NCBI GenBank assembly: GCA_050177605.1
Contig: JBFXGX010000011.1
Location: forward strand, 1-55,976
DNA from: Candidatus Izemoplasmatales bacterium
GTDB taxonomy: Bacteria; Bacillota_I; Bacilli_A; Izemoplasmatales; Hujiaoplasmataceae
Length of the DNA: 55,976 nucleotides
Direction of reading: 5' to 3'
Position 1 is the first letter of the stretch. The number at the start of each line of letters is the position of its first letter. The position numbers were made by a program. Shown one piece after another: positions 9,001 to 15,000 of the stretch.

Positions 9001-12000
9001 AGAAAGTATTCGATTGGTCACTTTCAGCGATAGGATTAAAAGAAGAAGAGGTGTTCAAATGAAAAATGTAGTCGTCGTCGGGGCAGGAATGAGTGGATTA
9101 ACTGCCACAGCATACTTGTTAAAAATGGGACATCAAGTGACACTAATCGAACAAGGTGATAAGCTTGGTGGATTAGTATCTTCATTTAATTACAAAGGAT
9201 TCACTGTAGATGGTGGTGCACGATCAATCGAAAACAACGGTGTCTTATTTCCAATGCTCAAACATCTTGGCATAGACGATATTGAGTGGAAAAAGAGTAT
9301 TGTTTCTCTTGGGCTTGAAGATGAATTTGTGATTCTTCATTCCAAAGACAATATTGACGATTATCAAAACCTCTTGGTTCGTAAATTTCCTGAGGAAAAA
9401 GAAGCAATCAGCCATATTTTTAATGATATAAAAAAATTTATGGATTATATGGATATTTTATATGGTATCGATAATCCTCTCTTTCTAGATATCAAAGAAG
9501 ATCGTGACTATTTCATCAAGAAAATATTTCCTTGGCTATTTAAGTTTTTACGAACCATTGGAAAAATCAAAAAGTATGATACTCCAATCAAACCACACTT
9601 AAATCAATATACGAATAATCAAGAATTGATTGACATTATTTCTCAACACTTTTTCCAACAAACTCCTGTTTTATTTGCTTTAAGTTACTTCTCTATTTAT
9701 TTGGACTATTATTATCCAAAAGGAGGGACTGGTGTTGTTGTTGAGAAAATAGGTGAGTATATAAAAAAACATGGCGCGGATATTCATCTCAATACACGAG
9801 TCAGCGAAGTCAGAATGGATACTCAAACTGTTTATGATTCTGAAGGAAGAGAATATCATTATGATTATTTGGTTTGGGCTGCAGATCAAAAAGCACTCTA
9901 TAGACAGTTGAATATAGAACATATTCCTCATCCAAAAGAAAAGAAACTAATCGAAGATAGAAGAACATATTTGGAAGATAAAAAAGGTGGAGATTCCGTT
10001 TTGTCATTATATTTATTGACAAATATTGATTCCCAAAACTATCCAAAATCCTATACACCACATTTATTCTATACGCCTTCCTCAACTCATTCCTATGACT
10101 TAACTAAATTCATTCGTCATGCAGATGGGCGTGATAAAGAAACAATGATTTCTGCTTTAAAAGAGTATTTAGAGTATACGACTTATGAAATATCAATACC
10201 ATCAAATCGATATCCAGAGCTTTCTCCTAAAGGCAAAAGTGCTATTATCGTTTCAACGTTAATGGACTACGAAATTATGACTCAAATTAGAAACGGTGGA
10301 TGGTATGATGAGTTCAAATCTGTCGTCACTGAAAAAATCATAGAGGTATTGAACAAAACCTTGTTTAAAGGTTTCAAAGATCAAATTTTTGATTCATTTA
10401 TTGCTTCTCCACTTACGGTAGAAAACCGAGTTAAATCCACAGATGGCGCAATTACCGGATGGGCATTTACAAACGATACGAATCCTTCAGTCAATGAAAT
10501 TCCAAAAGTCGCAAAATCTGTCCTCACTGGTCTAACAAATATTGTGCAAGCTGGTCAATGGGCTTATTCACCAGCTGGTATACCAACTGCAGTTATGACT
10601 GGAAAACTAGCTGCGGATCGTGTGCTTAAAAAGTTAAGAAAGAAATAAACCCAGAATTAAGACATAGTTCAACTACGCCTATCGAAAATAATAATTCATC
10701 CAAAAAAACTGTTGACAATGACTCTTATAGAGAATATAATGAATTCAAATCGTTGATTGGAAGTAAGTAAAGATATCTTGATTTGTTTAGAGAGTCAGTG
10801 TTTGGTGAAAACTGGTGAAATCAATTATCTTGAATGGGTCCAAGAGAGTTTCTTCGAATCAAGTAGAAGAAAACGGGTGTTCCCGTTACAGAACTAGAGT
10901 ATGTTAGTACTTGAATAAGCGCTTTTTTAAGCGAAATATGAGGTGGCACCACGAATTCAATCGTCCTCTACACATTTTTTGTGTAGAGGTTTTTTTAATT
11001 TTTAAGGAGGTACTAAAATGGGTACTTGAAGAGCATTTTCTATCGACAACTTAACGTATAAAAAAAATCAAACAAAAACTAAAGGAGAAAATAGAAAATG
11101 GAATTAGAATATGGAAGATTTGGTGGACAATTTGTTCCACCAGCTGTAATAAAGGCTTTAAATGAATTAGAAATTGCATTTAATGAGGCAATCAATGATC
11201 CTTCTTTTATTGATGAGTTAAACTACTATTTGAGAGACTATGTAGGTAGACCTTCCCCGTTATATTTTGCTGAGAATCTAACTAAAGAACTTGGTGGTGC
11301 AAAAATCTATTTAAAAAGAGAGGATTTGAACCATACAGGGGCACATAAGATAAATAATACAATTGGGCAAATCTTACTTGCTAAAAGAATGGGTAAGAAA
11401 AAAATAATCGCGGAAACTGGTGCAGGTCAACATGGTGTAGCGACTGCGACTGCAGCTGCAATGTTTGGTATGGAATGTGAAGTGTTCCAAGGGGCACTCG
11501 ATATGAAAAGACAAAAGTTAAATGTTTTTCGTATGGAAATGCTCGGAGCGAAGGTTACTGGTGTTGAGCAAGGCACAAAAACACTAGCGGATGCAGTAGA
11601 TTATGCAATTCAAACTTGGGTTGATCGCATAGACGATACTTTTTACTTACTAGGAAGTGCGGTTGGGCCCCATCCGTACCCTACAATCGTAAGGTATTTC
11701 CAAAAAATCATCGGTGAGGAAGCAAAACAACAAATTCTAGATAAAGAAGGAAGGTTACCCGATGTTGTCATGGCTTGTGTTGGCGGGGGATCAAATGCCA
11801 TCGGACTTTTCGCAGATTTCATCCAAAATGAAGAAGTATCCATTATTGGAGTTGAAGCTGCGGGAAAAGGACTAGATACAAATGAACACGCAGCAACCTT
11901 AACTCTTGGGAAAGAAACCGTGATTCACGGAATGAATACTTTTTCAATTGTGAATCCTGATGGTTCAATTAAAGAGGCATACTCTATCAGTGCTGGACTT

Positions 12001-15000
12001 GATTATCCTGGTGTTGGACCAGAACATGCTTTACTTAAAGATACGAAACGTGCAGCCTATTTCTCTGCTACTGATAAGGAAGCAGTAGATGCTTTTCTTA
12101 AGTTGTCACAACTTGAAGGAATTATCCCCGCGATTGAATCGAGTCACGCGATTGCTTATGCAATGAAATTAGCTCCAACGATGAAGAAAGACCAAATTAT
12201 TATCGTTAATCTATCTGGTAGAGGAGATAAAGATGTTGAAGCTATTGAAGCGTATTTAAAAAACAACGATTAATGAAAACAAAAAGAGCCATTTGGAATA
12301 GTATTCCATTTGGCTCTTTTATACGAAGTAATTATTGTTTTGTATAATCTTGTTTTCTGATGGAACCATCAACTTTGTGAATAACTACTGACGATCCAGC
12401 AGCATTCGCTAAACCTTCTGCAAATGCAATCGCATCTTTTTGAGTATCAAAAAATTTAATGGTTTTTTCTGAACCTTCTTTACGTACACGCCATTTCTTA
12501 AAATTCGGACTCTTTTCATCCTTGTTTTGAGACACATGATACTTCGGATTCTTTACAGGAGTTTTTTTCAATTCTTCTGTAACAGGTTTTTCTTTTTCAA
12601 CTGTATTTTCTTCTGTAATAGTTTGAGGTTCTAAAACGATTTCTTCCTTTGGTTCTTCCTTCACTACCTGTGGTTCAACAATGGTTTCCTCTTTTTCAAC
12701 TTCCTTTTGAACGACTACCTCAGGGACAATTTCCTTTGGGGTTTCTTTAGCTTGTTCCACTTTTTCTGGAGTGGCTACTTTCTTTGGTTTACTAGTAAGG
12801 ATAAAAATGAAAGCAATCAAGATGACTAGTCCAATAATGAAATAATACCAGTTTTCAATAATAAATTCCACAATAAATCCCCCTTCATATATATATTTTA
12901 TGGACAATTCCATTATAACTCAATATCAAGAAAAAAGGTCAAAATTGACTTATTTATTGCATTTTTTACAAAAATTTCTAGTAGATTTGCTATTTTGATG
13001 ATCGTAATATTTTTTCTAAAGCCTTCCCTTTTGCGAGTTCATCGACTAGTTTATCAAGATACCGTATATTTTTCATTAAATCTTCTTCAATATCCTGAAT
13101 AATCACGCCACAAATTGAACCGGTGATGAAAGAACGATTCGGATTTAGGCGAGGTGCACGCTCAAAGAAAACGGTCATTGTCTGATTGTTTTCCAGTACG
13201 TGATGCAATTCATCTTCATTATATCCTGTGAGCCAATAAATGATTTGATCGAGTTCAGACTTTTCTCTCCCCTTTTTCTCTATTTTTTGGATGTAAAGAG
13301 GATACACAGTTGAAAACGCAATGTCATAAATTTTGTTTTTTTTCATCTTATTCGTCCTTTGTGCGTATACTTGAGTGGAAAGAATGCTGAGCGTGAGTTC
13401 TGTCGTACACGGTAACATTCCACAACTCGTTTGAAGTTACACGTATAAACGCTTGCTCGTTTTCTGGCTGATATGCAATATGTAAACAATCATTTCCTAT
13501 ATGAAGTTGATCAATTGAATAGGCATTCTGTTCTTGAATGTGAATATAAAGTTCATGATGAAGATAATTTAGTTTGATTCCAAAGATATCTTCAATAAGG
13601 ATTGTAATTGGAGCGAGTCCAGTCCAACCAACAAAATCAGGACGAGCAATCGACTGGTGCTTTCCTGTTTTGGATTCATATACTTCATATAACTTTTGAA
13701 ATTCACTATAATCTTGAACAATTCCTTGAAGATATCTTTTTGCTAGTTGATGTTTTTCAGAGTAGTAACCATATCTTTCAAGTGCCTTGAATACCATATA
13801 ATTTGTTGGTGCCCATACTCCACCTCGCCAATAGTTATCATCGCATAAAGGGTGATGACTCGCGAGTCCAGGAATCACCATCGTTGTATAGAAGTCAGAA
13901 GGATTCATTAGGTGTTCAACCATTCTTTTGGCTTGCTTAACACTTGCAAGGCCTGAGAGCATTACCCAAAACGATCCAATGGTCATGATCTTTGTTAATT
14001 GACCAAAACGGTTTTTATCATAGAAAAAGCCAGTATCTTCATCCCACATTTCTTGGATTTTTACAGATAAAAGATGATACTCATCTTCCATATCTGTTGG
14101 AATTTTTACGTCGATTTCTTTTGCAATTTTGATGAGACAATCACAAGATAAAGCTTGCTGGGCTGTCATATCGATCCAAGATAAAAAACCATGATGAAAT
14201 TCAGGAGAATATTCAGCCGATTGTCTTGGTAAATTATCCATCCCACTACCCCATCCTGAAGTGAAATATGTTCCGTCTTTCCAAGTTCGATAATTTCTGA
14301 GCCACTGATGATAACTCGTTATTACTGGATAGACCTTTTTTAGTCTTTCAAGATCACCAGTGAGTTGATATCGATCCCATTCTATCCATGCAAATAGATT
14401 GGGTCCAGTACTACTATAATCAAACCTTTCAAATCTTTCTAAACCTGTTTCTTCATGAATTTCTCTACAAATAAAACCATCGCTATGCTGCGTTTGATAT
14501 AAATTATCGAGCGTTCCAAAAAAAGGAAATGCTGACGCGGCATATTTACCAAAATGCATCATAAATACACTGTCCCACATAAATAAGTGATCATTAAAAC
14601 AAGTGTCTATAAATGGTTTATAGAAATAGTCGTTAGCTGGTTTCAGTGAAGAATATGCTTGTTTCCATGCATAGTTATAACAAGAGATTGTTTCCTCGTT
14701 GTTACTCCATGCTATCCTAGGTGTATTCTTTATAAAATGTTCTATTGACGGCACAGTGGTAACCTTCAAAGGCTTCATTTTGAAAGTATTTTTTTTCGTT
14801 AGTTCATTTTCTACATGAATATCATAATAGCTTGTCATTTGTTTACAAGATCCTTTTATATTTAGATTGAGGAGTATCTTCGAATATTTTCTTCGATGAT
14901 ATCCCAGTATTTCTCCACATCGATGTCTGTTGCGACATAGATGTTTTTTTCTAAATGCATATAATCAAATATGTCGCAATTGGTTCTTCCATAACTTGAA

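Follow-up and report, generated by a model that had tools for sequence, protein, structure and literature searches.

Stand-alone activity of TrpB1-type tryptophan synthase beta subunits has been described for the Pelodictyon luteolum TrpB and for the ancestral LBCA TrpB, both of which are active without TrpA, and it has been tied to six residues termed Res6 (PMC11917138). The P. luteolum enzyme carries all six and has a stand-alone kcat of about 0.35 per s; its TrpA is still there, is bound, and activates it 2.7-fold (PMC11917138). In Chlamydia trachomatis, the trpRBA operon serves indole salvage in an auxotroph when tryptophan is short, and a catalytically dead TrpA is kept as a 4-fold activator (PMC8376405); the operon is reported to be regulated by TrpR and YtgR. 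Cryptosporidium carries a horizontally acquired trpB (cgd5_4560), for which indole salvage has been offered as a hypothesis in a description where TrpA goes unmentioned (PMC4777385). TrpB2 proteins, with Thermococcus kodakarensis as the cited example, are non-operon TrpBs that do not bind TrpA and use free indole (PMC11085991). The trpB1 genes occur in trp operons, as stated for the genome set of one paper (PMC1854888).

The locus described here lies in a window of 55,976 nt (the whole stretch of DNA that was analyzed) on contig JBFXGX010000011.1 of a Candidatus Izemoplasmatales bacterium whose genome bin is 89% complete. The survey's finding was a stand-alone TrpB1 that salvages indole during tryptophan shortage. 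That reading fits all of the tests run, and we put at about 0.85 the probability that the gene encodes the salvage enzyme of a tryptophan auxotroph, which would make tryptophan from indole and L-serine. Like the P. luteolum and LBCA enzymes the protein is of the TrpB1 type, but it has one of the six Res6 residues, a changed TrpA interface, and a genome without trpA. Salvage in an auxotroph is shared with C. trachomatis, but the window has a T-box and no TrpA where Chlamydia has TrpR/YtgR and a dead TrpA. The Cryptosporidium gene, by its description, belongs to a eukaryotic parasite and has no RNA regulation.

The trpB1 gene (11098..12273, forward strand; Shine-Dalgarno sequence at 11081-11087) encodes 391 aa and scores 620.7 bits with TIGR00263 (cut-off 392.45). 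The TrpB2 models stay under their cut-offs (TIGR01415, 173.1 versus 518.85; NF009057, 191.1 versus 366), and the TIGR01415 score rules out TrpB2, a separate family. The best match among solved structures is LBCA-b (5ey5). An ungapped alignment to LBCA-b shows K84, E106, GAGQHG, D302, E347, and S348 all kept, and K84, E106, D302, and E347 are invariant in 41 operon-type and 52 orphan TrpB proteins. A pseudogene is ruled out, and the ORF is intact. The description of this gene as a TrpB1 standing alone behind a T-box is upheld by its layout: it forms a single-gene unit, and the downstream gene (DUF2188) is convergent. An inverted repeat between the two genes (12282..12320, forward strand), seen by eye in the sequence and missing from the terminator scan's list, is likely a terminator. 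Contigs from two runs of a single study, one run possibly being the source, span the locus, and a relative about 90% identical occurs in another study.

No TrpA was found in the genome with PF00290 at E ≤ 1 or with a 36-sequence TrpA HMM run without filters over all six frames (best E 0.04). HMMs for TrpE, TrpG, TrpD, TrpC, and TrpF, built from neighbors of operonic trpB, likewise found none of these proteins in the genome; their best matches were CTP synthase-like and nucleoside phosphorylase-like proteins, named from sequence. The earlier statements that trpA and the other trp genes are missing here thus both hold. In the host family, 27 of 71 genomes carry trpB1 (previously counted in 21 of 45 relatives) and TrpC is over cut-off in none; PF00290 matches in nine of the 71, all of them weak (60-114 bits versus 258-279 for true TrpA). 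A second family, that of genome G071, has trpB1 in 44 of 101 genomes and TrpA over cut-off in none. Canonical trpA is absent from both families (71 and 101 genomes), and trpB1 without a TrpA match is found in the complete genomes G071 and G073 and in the single-contig genome G068. Whole-genome absence of trpA covers these family sets and five individual genomes, a narrower scope than all orphan loci. Bin incompleteness, a caveat of the survey, is ruled out as the cause of the missing trpA because the same pattern recurs in 27 of 71 genomes of one family and 44 of 101 of the other, some of them closed. One of 21 relatives' loci had been listed as trp-operon-like, but no trp operon was seen among the host family's trpB loci. 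The tryptophanase reported for this genome is confirmed at family level: NF009709 is over cut-off, and the narrower TIGR02617 and TIGR02618 are below theirs. The tryptophanase family is present in 67 of the 71 family genomes, including all 27 with trpB, and glyA in the window genome is a serine source.

Contacts between the two subunits are known from Mycobacterium tuberculosis, where beta-K181 and beta-R189 touch TrpA (PMC6608616); by structure alignment (offset 17), these correspond to K164 and R172. The TrpA-contact positions of the window TrpB are changed to P15, A164, D168, Q172, and V285. Among the compared kin, which are not independent, R172 is present in 41/41 operon-type versus 0/52 orphan proteins, N168 in 36/41 versus 1/52, K164 in 39/41 versus 13/52, E15 in 41/41 versus 13/52, and Q285 in 41/41 versus 9/52; S164 and D168 are each also found in two of the 41 operon-type proteins. 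Three genomes (G180, G184, and G074) have an ordinary trpBA besides an orphan trpB; in each, the operon-type copy keeps K/N/R and the orphan copy lacks N168 and R172. Three Halanaerobiaceae loci were dropped from the trpA-free set because one of their genomes has trpBA. Judged from sequence, this TrpB1 without TrpA has lost the surface that binds the usual partner.

Of the Res6 residues (E36, E42, T53, S187, A279, M280), only S187 is kept, and the window TrpB has S36, N42, S53, M279, and N280 at the others. This counts against the salvage reading, since stand-alone activity would need another route. So does the rate of an isolated beta dimer, which in S. typhimurium can fall about 100-fold (PMC9512447), though only 4-fold in Chlamydia (PMC8376405). 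Salvage could instead run on leftover basal activity, with a TrpB1 of the TrpA-dependent type whose interface drifted after trpA loss, no gained stand-alone activity, and strong T-box induction offsetting a slow enzyme. The salvage role would be the same, with a difference in rate only. The lone Res6 residue argues for leftover activity, as do a small tryptophan demand and the variability of most changed interface positions in orphans, as in drift (position 172 may be N, G, E, M, or D). Against leftover activity, N168D is nearly fixed (51/52 orphans), recurring in three separate orphan clades of a FastTree tree of TrpB and in the orphan paralogues of trpBA-bearing genomes, and L184, I235, and V294 are nearly fixed as well. 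These substitutions look like adaptation, short of proof, and we consider leftover activity possible but doubtful.

The survey also listed an unlinked trpA in four of ten relatives, a claim that did not survive closer comparison. The gene encodes a 238-aa divergent TrpA paralogue in a uridine-phosphorylase/BtpA/alcohol-dehydrogenase operon. The GVTG loop (loop 6) is present in 36/36 canonical TrpA proteins and 0/9 of these, the N-terminal helix of TrpA is missing, and both proteins tested fall under the TIGR00262 cut-off (for example, 101.4 bits versus 102.35). By loop, helix, gene context, and score, the protein is not a canonical TrpA. It occurs in nine family genomes, four of them without trpB, and also without trpB1 in G185 and G190. 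A need of TrpB for this divergent protein, or for an unassembled trpA, is very improbable: the protein keeps both acidic residues at catalytic positions, scores close to the cut-off, and accompanies trpB in five genomes, and the bin is incomplete, but the gene is absent from the window genome and from 22 of 27 trpB genomes, its co-occurrence with trpB1 (five) is near the 3.4 or so expected by chance, it lacks the loop and helix, and the 101 second-family genomes have no TrpA.

The window's T-box leader (RF00230; 10744..10971, forward strand) matches the full model (1-219) at 128.7 bits (gathering score 93; E 2.6e-28). Its stem I, stem II, and antiterminator are all there, and it follows a predicted sigma-A type promoter (TTGACA-17-TATAAT; 10712..10740, forward strand) that matches the consensus at 12 of 12 positions. 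The specifier codon UGG (10835..10837), in the context GAA-UGG-G (10832-10838), was read from the covariance alignment and lies with the stem I closing helix in the fold; reading the genome's synthetase T-boxes in this way yields the codons expected of them (for example, UGG before trpS and UAC before tyrS). The antiterminator (10940..10968; fold -5.8 kcal/mol) has a UGGCACC bulge whose UGGC (10944-10947) is complementary to G73-CCA, the GCCA end of tRNA-Trp(CCA) in this genome; the C pairs with G73. An intrinsic terminator with a U tract (10965..10996, or 10965-10989 in the scan; -16 kcal/mol, z -7.1) overlaps the antiterminator. The tryptophan specifier, discriminator match, and overlapping terminator are those of a transcriptional T-box, in agreement with the Trp T-box of the survey. 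A GAA(A)-UGG specifier is present in all 27 family leaders with an antiterminator, and 25 of 26 relatives' trpB loci with upstream DNA have a T-box over the gathering score (18 of 20 in the earlier count).

In the salvage reading, uncharged tRNA-Trp would cause the T-box to antiterminate (its family membership is firm, and its switching is presumed), and monocistronic trpB1 would be transcribed. Because trpA is absent and the interface eroded, the beta dimer would function without an alpha subunit, and because the catalytic residues are intact, it would condense free indole with L-serine to tryptophan. Tryptophanase of the same cell, as well as neighbors, may supply the indole, in which case confining expression to starvation would prevent futile cycling.

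In the Bacillus subtilis rtpA (anti-TRAP) operon, uncharged tRNA-Trp is sensed twice, once in transcription and once in translation (PMC10327191). That operon and the window locus both pair a T-box with a leader ORF; rtpA controls a regulator, and the window leader an enzyme gene. The rtpLP peptide of Chen and Yanofsky reportedly has tandem UGG codons within 10 codons, in place of which the trpB leaders have an ORF of two to five codons ending in UGA or, in the clostridial form, a single UGG. In the window, this mini-ORF (11004..11029, forward strand) lies between the terminator and trpB, with a Shine-Dalgarno sequence at 11004-11010 and ATG GGT ACT TGA (M-G-T-stop) at 11018-11029, and contains no UGG codon. 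The arrangement of Shine-Dalgarno sequence, ATG, one to four codons, and UGA is conserved in relatives. The stop is UGA in 41/41 non-redundant leaders (UGA ends 15% of the genome's long ORFs), and Pro or Thr precedes it in 37/41, compared with 3/184 ordinary UGA genes of the genome. Peptide length ranges freely over two to five codons and the spacer over 52-93 nt, while the Shine-Dalgarno sequence, frame, UGA, and the A directly after it, also present in the window, are held. Only one of the genome's 13 T-boxes, that of trpB, is followed by a mini-ORF. Three clostridial orphan-trpB leaders have one real UGG codon each at the place of the UGA and at the same distance; exact matches to their leader peptide are confined to 3 of 401 genomes; viewed as a group, looser matches looked like chance, and a wider spread was rejected. 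The mini-ORF, which with the eroded interface adds to the earlier description of the locus, is very probably real and under selection, and most likely tunes trpB translation.

Read-through of the UGA would carry a ribosome along a frame (11030..11107, forward strand; stop TAG at 11105-11107) that is open across the 68-nt spacer and over the trpB Shine-Dalgarno sequence and ATG, out of frame. A ribosome past the UGA would reach the downstream start here, in 31/41 GTDB leaders (other frames open in 8 and 5; shuffles, mean 7.8, maximum 13), and in 2/9 non-redundant metagenome leaders. The frame is offset from trpB in 38/41 leaders (+1 in 24, +2 in 14) and in frame in three; this variation rules out a programmed frameshift into trpB. 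Close enough to the UGA to be reached by a ribosome held there, the strand at 11034..11043 (forward strand) pairs perfectly over 10 bp with 11091-11100 and is predicted to hide the trpB AUG (duplex -10.3 kcal/mol, shuffle p 0.005). A start-hiding helix is present in 7/50 leaders, which rules out its universal conservation. Genetic code 4 is ruled out: UAA is the dominant stop, motifs of both RF1 and RF2 were found, and internal stops are missing from all trpB matches. TnaC is a 24-residue peptide that acts with Rho, has Pro before an RF2-read UGA, and induces on high free tryptophan. The mini-ORF leaders share Pro before UGA, an RF2 stop, and a tryptophan context, but a TnaC-like stalling mechanism is ruled out by the short peptide, and no Rho was found in the genome.

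These features suggest, tentatively, that tryptophan is sensed in two steps: after the T-box, a stop codon would serve as the sensing codon, with RF2 release competing against misreading by charged tRNA-Trp(CCA) at M-G-P/T-UGA. When tryptophan is replete, read-through would make the ribosome cross the trpB start in another frame and shut off translation. In starvation, a ribosome delayed at the Pro/Thr-UGA, where termination is poor, would keep that start free, and here would also melt the start-hiding helix. The exact mechanism is uncertain, and it is similarly doubtful that such a sensor controls a natural TrpB1 made independent of TrpA by a non-Res6 route at least three times. A serious contender, somewhat short of even odds, is a helper blind to tryptophan, in which a ribosome that is slow to terminate close to the 5' end stabilizes the mRNA or feeds trpB by reinitiation or helix melting. 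Pro or Thr before the stop would slow release at any tryptophan level, the mini-ORF is missing from many leaders with a T-box before trpB (22/30 in one set, 6/52 in another), and the read-through frame is closed in 10/41 GTDB and 7/9 metagenome leaders. A24 of tRNA-Trp is family-wide (30/30 loci), so co-evolution with the mini-ORF is unsupported, as a blind helper would have it. Such a helper leaves unexplained the constant UGA, the open and mostly out-of-frame reading frame, and the clostridial UGG at the same distance. A functionless remnant, left by a Trp leader peptide that was once longer or by a gene since deleted, is improbable: the clostridial leaders hint at an ancestor that was longer, and inheritance could account for an open spacer frame, but constraint falls on the Shine-Dalgarno sequence, frame, UGA, and next A, with length and spacer free, and Pro/Thr is strongly enriched before the stop.

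Stand-alone TrpB proteins are engineered biocatalysts and a model of allostery. Natural TrpA-less TrpB1 proteins from about 70 genomes, without the Res6 solution and with operon-type paralogues in the same genomes as controls, allow the release of TrpB from its activator to be tested directly. If the mini-ORF senses tryptophan by UGA read-through, it would be a form of attenuation not described before, and a case in nature of UGA/Trp ambiguity put to regulatory use among code-11 relatives of the mollicutes. Mollicutes went on to read UGA as tryptophan, and such a sensor would bear on how UGA came to code for it. For gut bacteria, the excerpted text of one survey lists TrpAB and no TrpB-only variant (PMC9026213). 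The TrpA-free TrpB1s predict indole salvage in anaerobes that are scored as plain tryptophan auxotrophs.

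The trpB1 gene of the window has a leader of its own. A T-box (10744-10971, forward strand; RF00230, 128.7 bits), with the specifier codon UGG at 10835-10837 of the same strand in the T-box alignment, precedes an open reading frame of 391 aa (11098-12273, forward strand; TIGR00263, 620.7 bits against a cut-off of 392.45), on whose protein the TrpB2 model falls far below cut-off. The antiterminator bulge UGGC matches G73 of the genome's own tRNA-Trp(CCA). Because the promoter is a 12/12 consensus match, the terminator overlaps the antiterminator and the following gene is convergent, trpB1 is a one-gene unit. 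The positions, TrpB1 type and Trp specificity reported in the survey's finding all hold, as does the T-box before relatives' trpB: 25 of the 26 family loci having upstream DNA exceed the gathering score, and GAA(A)-UGG is present in 27/27 family leaders, the window's own counted.

The survey also reported that trpA and the other trp genes were absent. In the bin, which is 1.94 Mb long and 89% complete, Pfam gave no TrpA, nor did an HMM of 36 sequences run unfiltered over all six frames (best E 0.04); TrpE, G, D, C and F were likewise not found. Incompleteness does not explain the lone gene, since trpB1 occurs in 27/71 genomes of the family (TrpC over cut-off in 0/71) and in 44/101 genomes of the family of G071, inferred to be Acholeplasmataceae (TrpA over cut-off in 0/101); G071 and G073, both complete, carry trpB1 but lack TrpA. 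No trpA adjoins trpB in the 33 best-ranked GTDB loci. These counts describe a stable trait and not a p-value, because kin are not independent. The lone trpB1 is real and widespread, with better support than first stated.

The "unlinked trpA" attributed to some relatives is a different protein. PF00290 matches occur in 9/71 family genomes, and all nine are one divergent 238-aa protein scoring 60-114 bits, compared with 258-279 for real TrpA. The GVTG loop is found in 0/9 aligned sequences (one from outside the family) and in 36/36 canonical TrpA. The gene adjoins uridine phosphorylase-like and BtpA/SgcQ genes, mostly also an iron alcohol dehydrogenase-like gene; trpB is missing in 4/9 of these genomes, and both occur in five, where about 3.4 were expected. 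This uncharacterized operon (L044:1501-2217; L057:188-2904 in G006; L043-L059; also L316-L319) encodes a TrpA-like barrel that retains the catalytic acidic pair without loop 6 and may be a new aldolase in the breakdown of nucleosides or sugars.

The TrpA interface was compared in 41 operon-type and 52 orphan TrpB proteins, leaving out 10 duplicates, fragments <300 aa and three Halanaerobiaceae orphans; two of the 41 were classed as operon-type by a trpF lying upstream, no trpA being visible alongside. The catalytic residues K84, E106, D302 and E347 do not vary in any of the proteins. R172 is present in 41/41 operon-type proteins vs. 0/52 orphans, N168 in 36/41 vs. 1/52 (D in 51 orphans), K164 in 39/41 vs. 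13/52, E15 in 41/41 vs. 13/52, and Q285 in 41/41 vs. 9/52. Three segments contain eleven of the 17 lost positions but only 30 of the 204 conserved ones; the segments were chosen after the data were seen, so that a Fisher p of 8e-7 overstates the significance. Where both types coexist (G180, G184, G074), the operon-type copy keeps K, N and R, and the orphan copy lacks N168 and R172. Orphans form three clades in a FastTree tree (supports 0.98, 0.96, and 1.0). If chain numbering equals that of PMC6608616, K164 and R172 correspond to M. tuberculosis beta-K181 and beta-R189, which touch TrpA according to that paper. Judged from the residue pattern, the orphan enzyme has shed its TrpA-binding surface. 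Easy stand-alone activity is counted against, because the window protein has only S187 of the six residues (E36, E42, T53, S187, A279, M280) tied to such activity in LBCA and P. luteolum TrpB (PMC11917138) and isolated beta dimers are 4- to 100-fold less active (PMC8376405, PMC9512447).

By score and catalytic residues the protein belongs to TrpB1, but not by TrpA partnership; the characterized natural stand-alone TrpB1 retains its TrpA, whereas this genome has none. It would work like Chlamydia TrpAB salvage and TrpB2. The literature covered, mostly open-access papers in their main text, contained no account of this clade, its interface loss or the UGA mini-ORF described below. Comparative T-box and trp surveys could list a lone T-box trpB, as may supplements to papers. 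TrpA-free trpB has precedents in Cryptosporidium (PMC4777385) and TrpB2 (PMC11085991, PMC1854888), trp operons of Bacillota are commonly under a T-box (PMC12452182), and tandem T-box and stalling control is known for rtpA (PMC10327191). The regulatory mechanism attached to trpB1 is possibly new.

The survey's unit stands, but it missed a conserved mini-ORF between terminator and trpB: SD and ATG GGT ACT TGA (11018-11029, forward strand). It follows 1/13 T-boxes of the genome, the trpB one; one other has an 8-codon UAG frame overlapping its own gene's start. Of the orphan leaders in which an antiterminator was seen (52), a short ORF is present in 44, one of these a doubtful M-stop that was afterwards removed; two have a long ORF and six none; in the G071 family the count is 8/30. 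The stop is UGA in 41/41 non-redundant GTDB leaders, followed by A in 40/41 and preceded by Pro or Thr in 37/41. Genome-wide, UGA ends 184/1251 long ORFs, with A next in 90/184 and Pro before it in none (Thr in three). The frame past UGA is open up to the trpB start in 31/41 leaders (against 8 and 5 for the other frames; 300 dinucleotide shuffles gave a mean of 7.8 and a maximum of 13), and in 38/41 it differs from the trpB frame. In leaders without the mini-ORF from the second orphan clade (L271-L298), AAGAC-R-R-AAAG recurs just 5' of trpB and may be a longer ribosome-binding site or some other element.

The mini-ORF is very probably functional, and that it is a vestige is improbable. A Trp-blind helper is a tentative reading. 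In the window, the 10 bases past UGA are fully complementary to the trpB start, and pairing at p<=0.01 occurs in 7/50 leaders for the first 18 nt vs. 0/50 for the next 18 (0.5 expected), in a test prompted by the window itself and with two of the seven positives close kin. Trp sensing by UGA read-through is somewhat more doubtful. The tRNA-Trp has A24 and U43, which are also carried by E. coli variants that were shown to decode UGA (PMC13092985); E. coli misreads UGA mainly as Trp (PMC11126739), termination after Pro is described as slow (PMC7246954), and no RF3 was found in the bin. Against sensing, the element is absent from many leaders, and A24 occurs in 30/30 family tRNA-Trp loci examined, trpB present or not. 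An A after UGA affects its leakiness. The leakiest following base is G, not A, according to PMC11126739, and C-terminal Pro or Thr brought no expression change in Mycoplasma pneumoniae (PMC7246954). Metagenomes scanned for the mini-ORF pattern yielded 119 matches, 14 having an antiterminator, and all 14 stand before trpB; also against sensing, their read-through frame is open in 3/14 (2/9 non-redundant) and shares the trpB frame in 5/14. If only a few percent of ribosomes read through, this might not suffice for regulation. The remaining probability falls on other regulatory uses. The RF2 gene (G000:C2:142375-143466) is a single 363-aa frame that seems to lack the usual programmed frameshift, and GNGGQG surrounds its GGQ motif. 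Rho, like RF3, was not found in the bin.

In the family of G072 (Caloramator quimbayensis), three genomes instead encode M-x-N-Y-F-S-I-Y-G-L-Y-R-W behind the T-box of an orphan trpB (L301, L302, L307). Within codons 3-13 of this conserved 13-codon Trp peptide, a candidate arrest peptide, six codons change synonymously and none changes the amino acid. The frame continues out of frame across the trpB start. UGG lies 58-67 nt 5' of the trpB ATG and UGA spacers are 52-93, positions that suggest homology of the two leaders.

Other RNA elements were also seen. The window has a ROOL RNA (2099-2637, forward strand; RF03087, 164.5 bits), closely preceded by a small gene (1783-2034) resembling a helix-turn-helix regulator. 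Upstream of the T-box on the opposite strand, five loci (L010, L012, L013, L016, L028) have c-di-GMP-I riboswitches in tandem, close to divergent genes whose small products (~156-186 aa) look secreted. Halanaerobiaceae orphan trpB (L126, L129, L134) have no T-box; repeated GAG/UAG-rich units, reminiscent of TRAP sites, precede a terminator-like hairpin. G013 has two different T-box trpB copies (L007, L028) at 7% bin contamination, either a duplication or a mixed bin.

Tryptophanase was reported for the genome, and this holds at family level. A tryptophanase-family gene occurs in 67/71 family genomes, including all 27 with trpB. The bin's copy passes the NF009709 cut-off but neither narrower model, has FDTT and LRHF motifs that we take to be tryptophanase-type, and has no T-box ahead of it; glyA was found in the bin. 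A second gene of the tryptophanase/tyrosine phenol-lyase family, divergent and with an FTTT motif, is preceded by a T-box whose specifier is UAC (Tyr) (L380:1917-2163, G019; L381:3335-3581, G020; L382:1857-2104, G021; L383:1689-1935, G015; L384:1680-1921, G042; the L385 leader is similar) and lies just 3' of trpB in G019, G020, and G021. Run in reverse, it may salvage phenol to tyrosine, parallel to indole salvage. We put the joint reading of T-box switching, activity without TrpA and indole use at about 0.85, as judged from sequence. Plentiful tryptophan would then be broken down, and when tRNA-Trp is uncharged, tryptophan would be rebuilt from indole.
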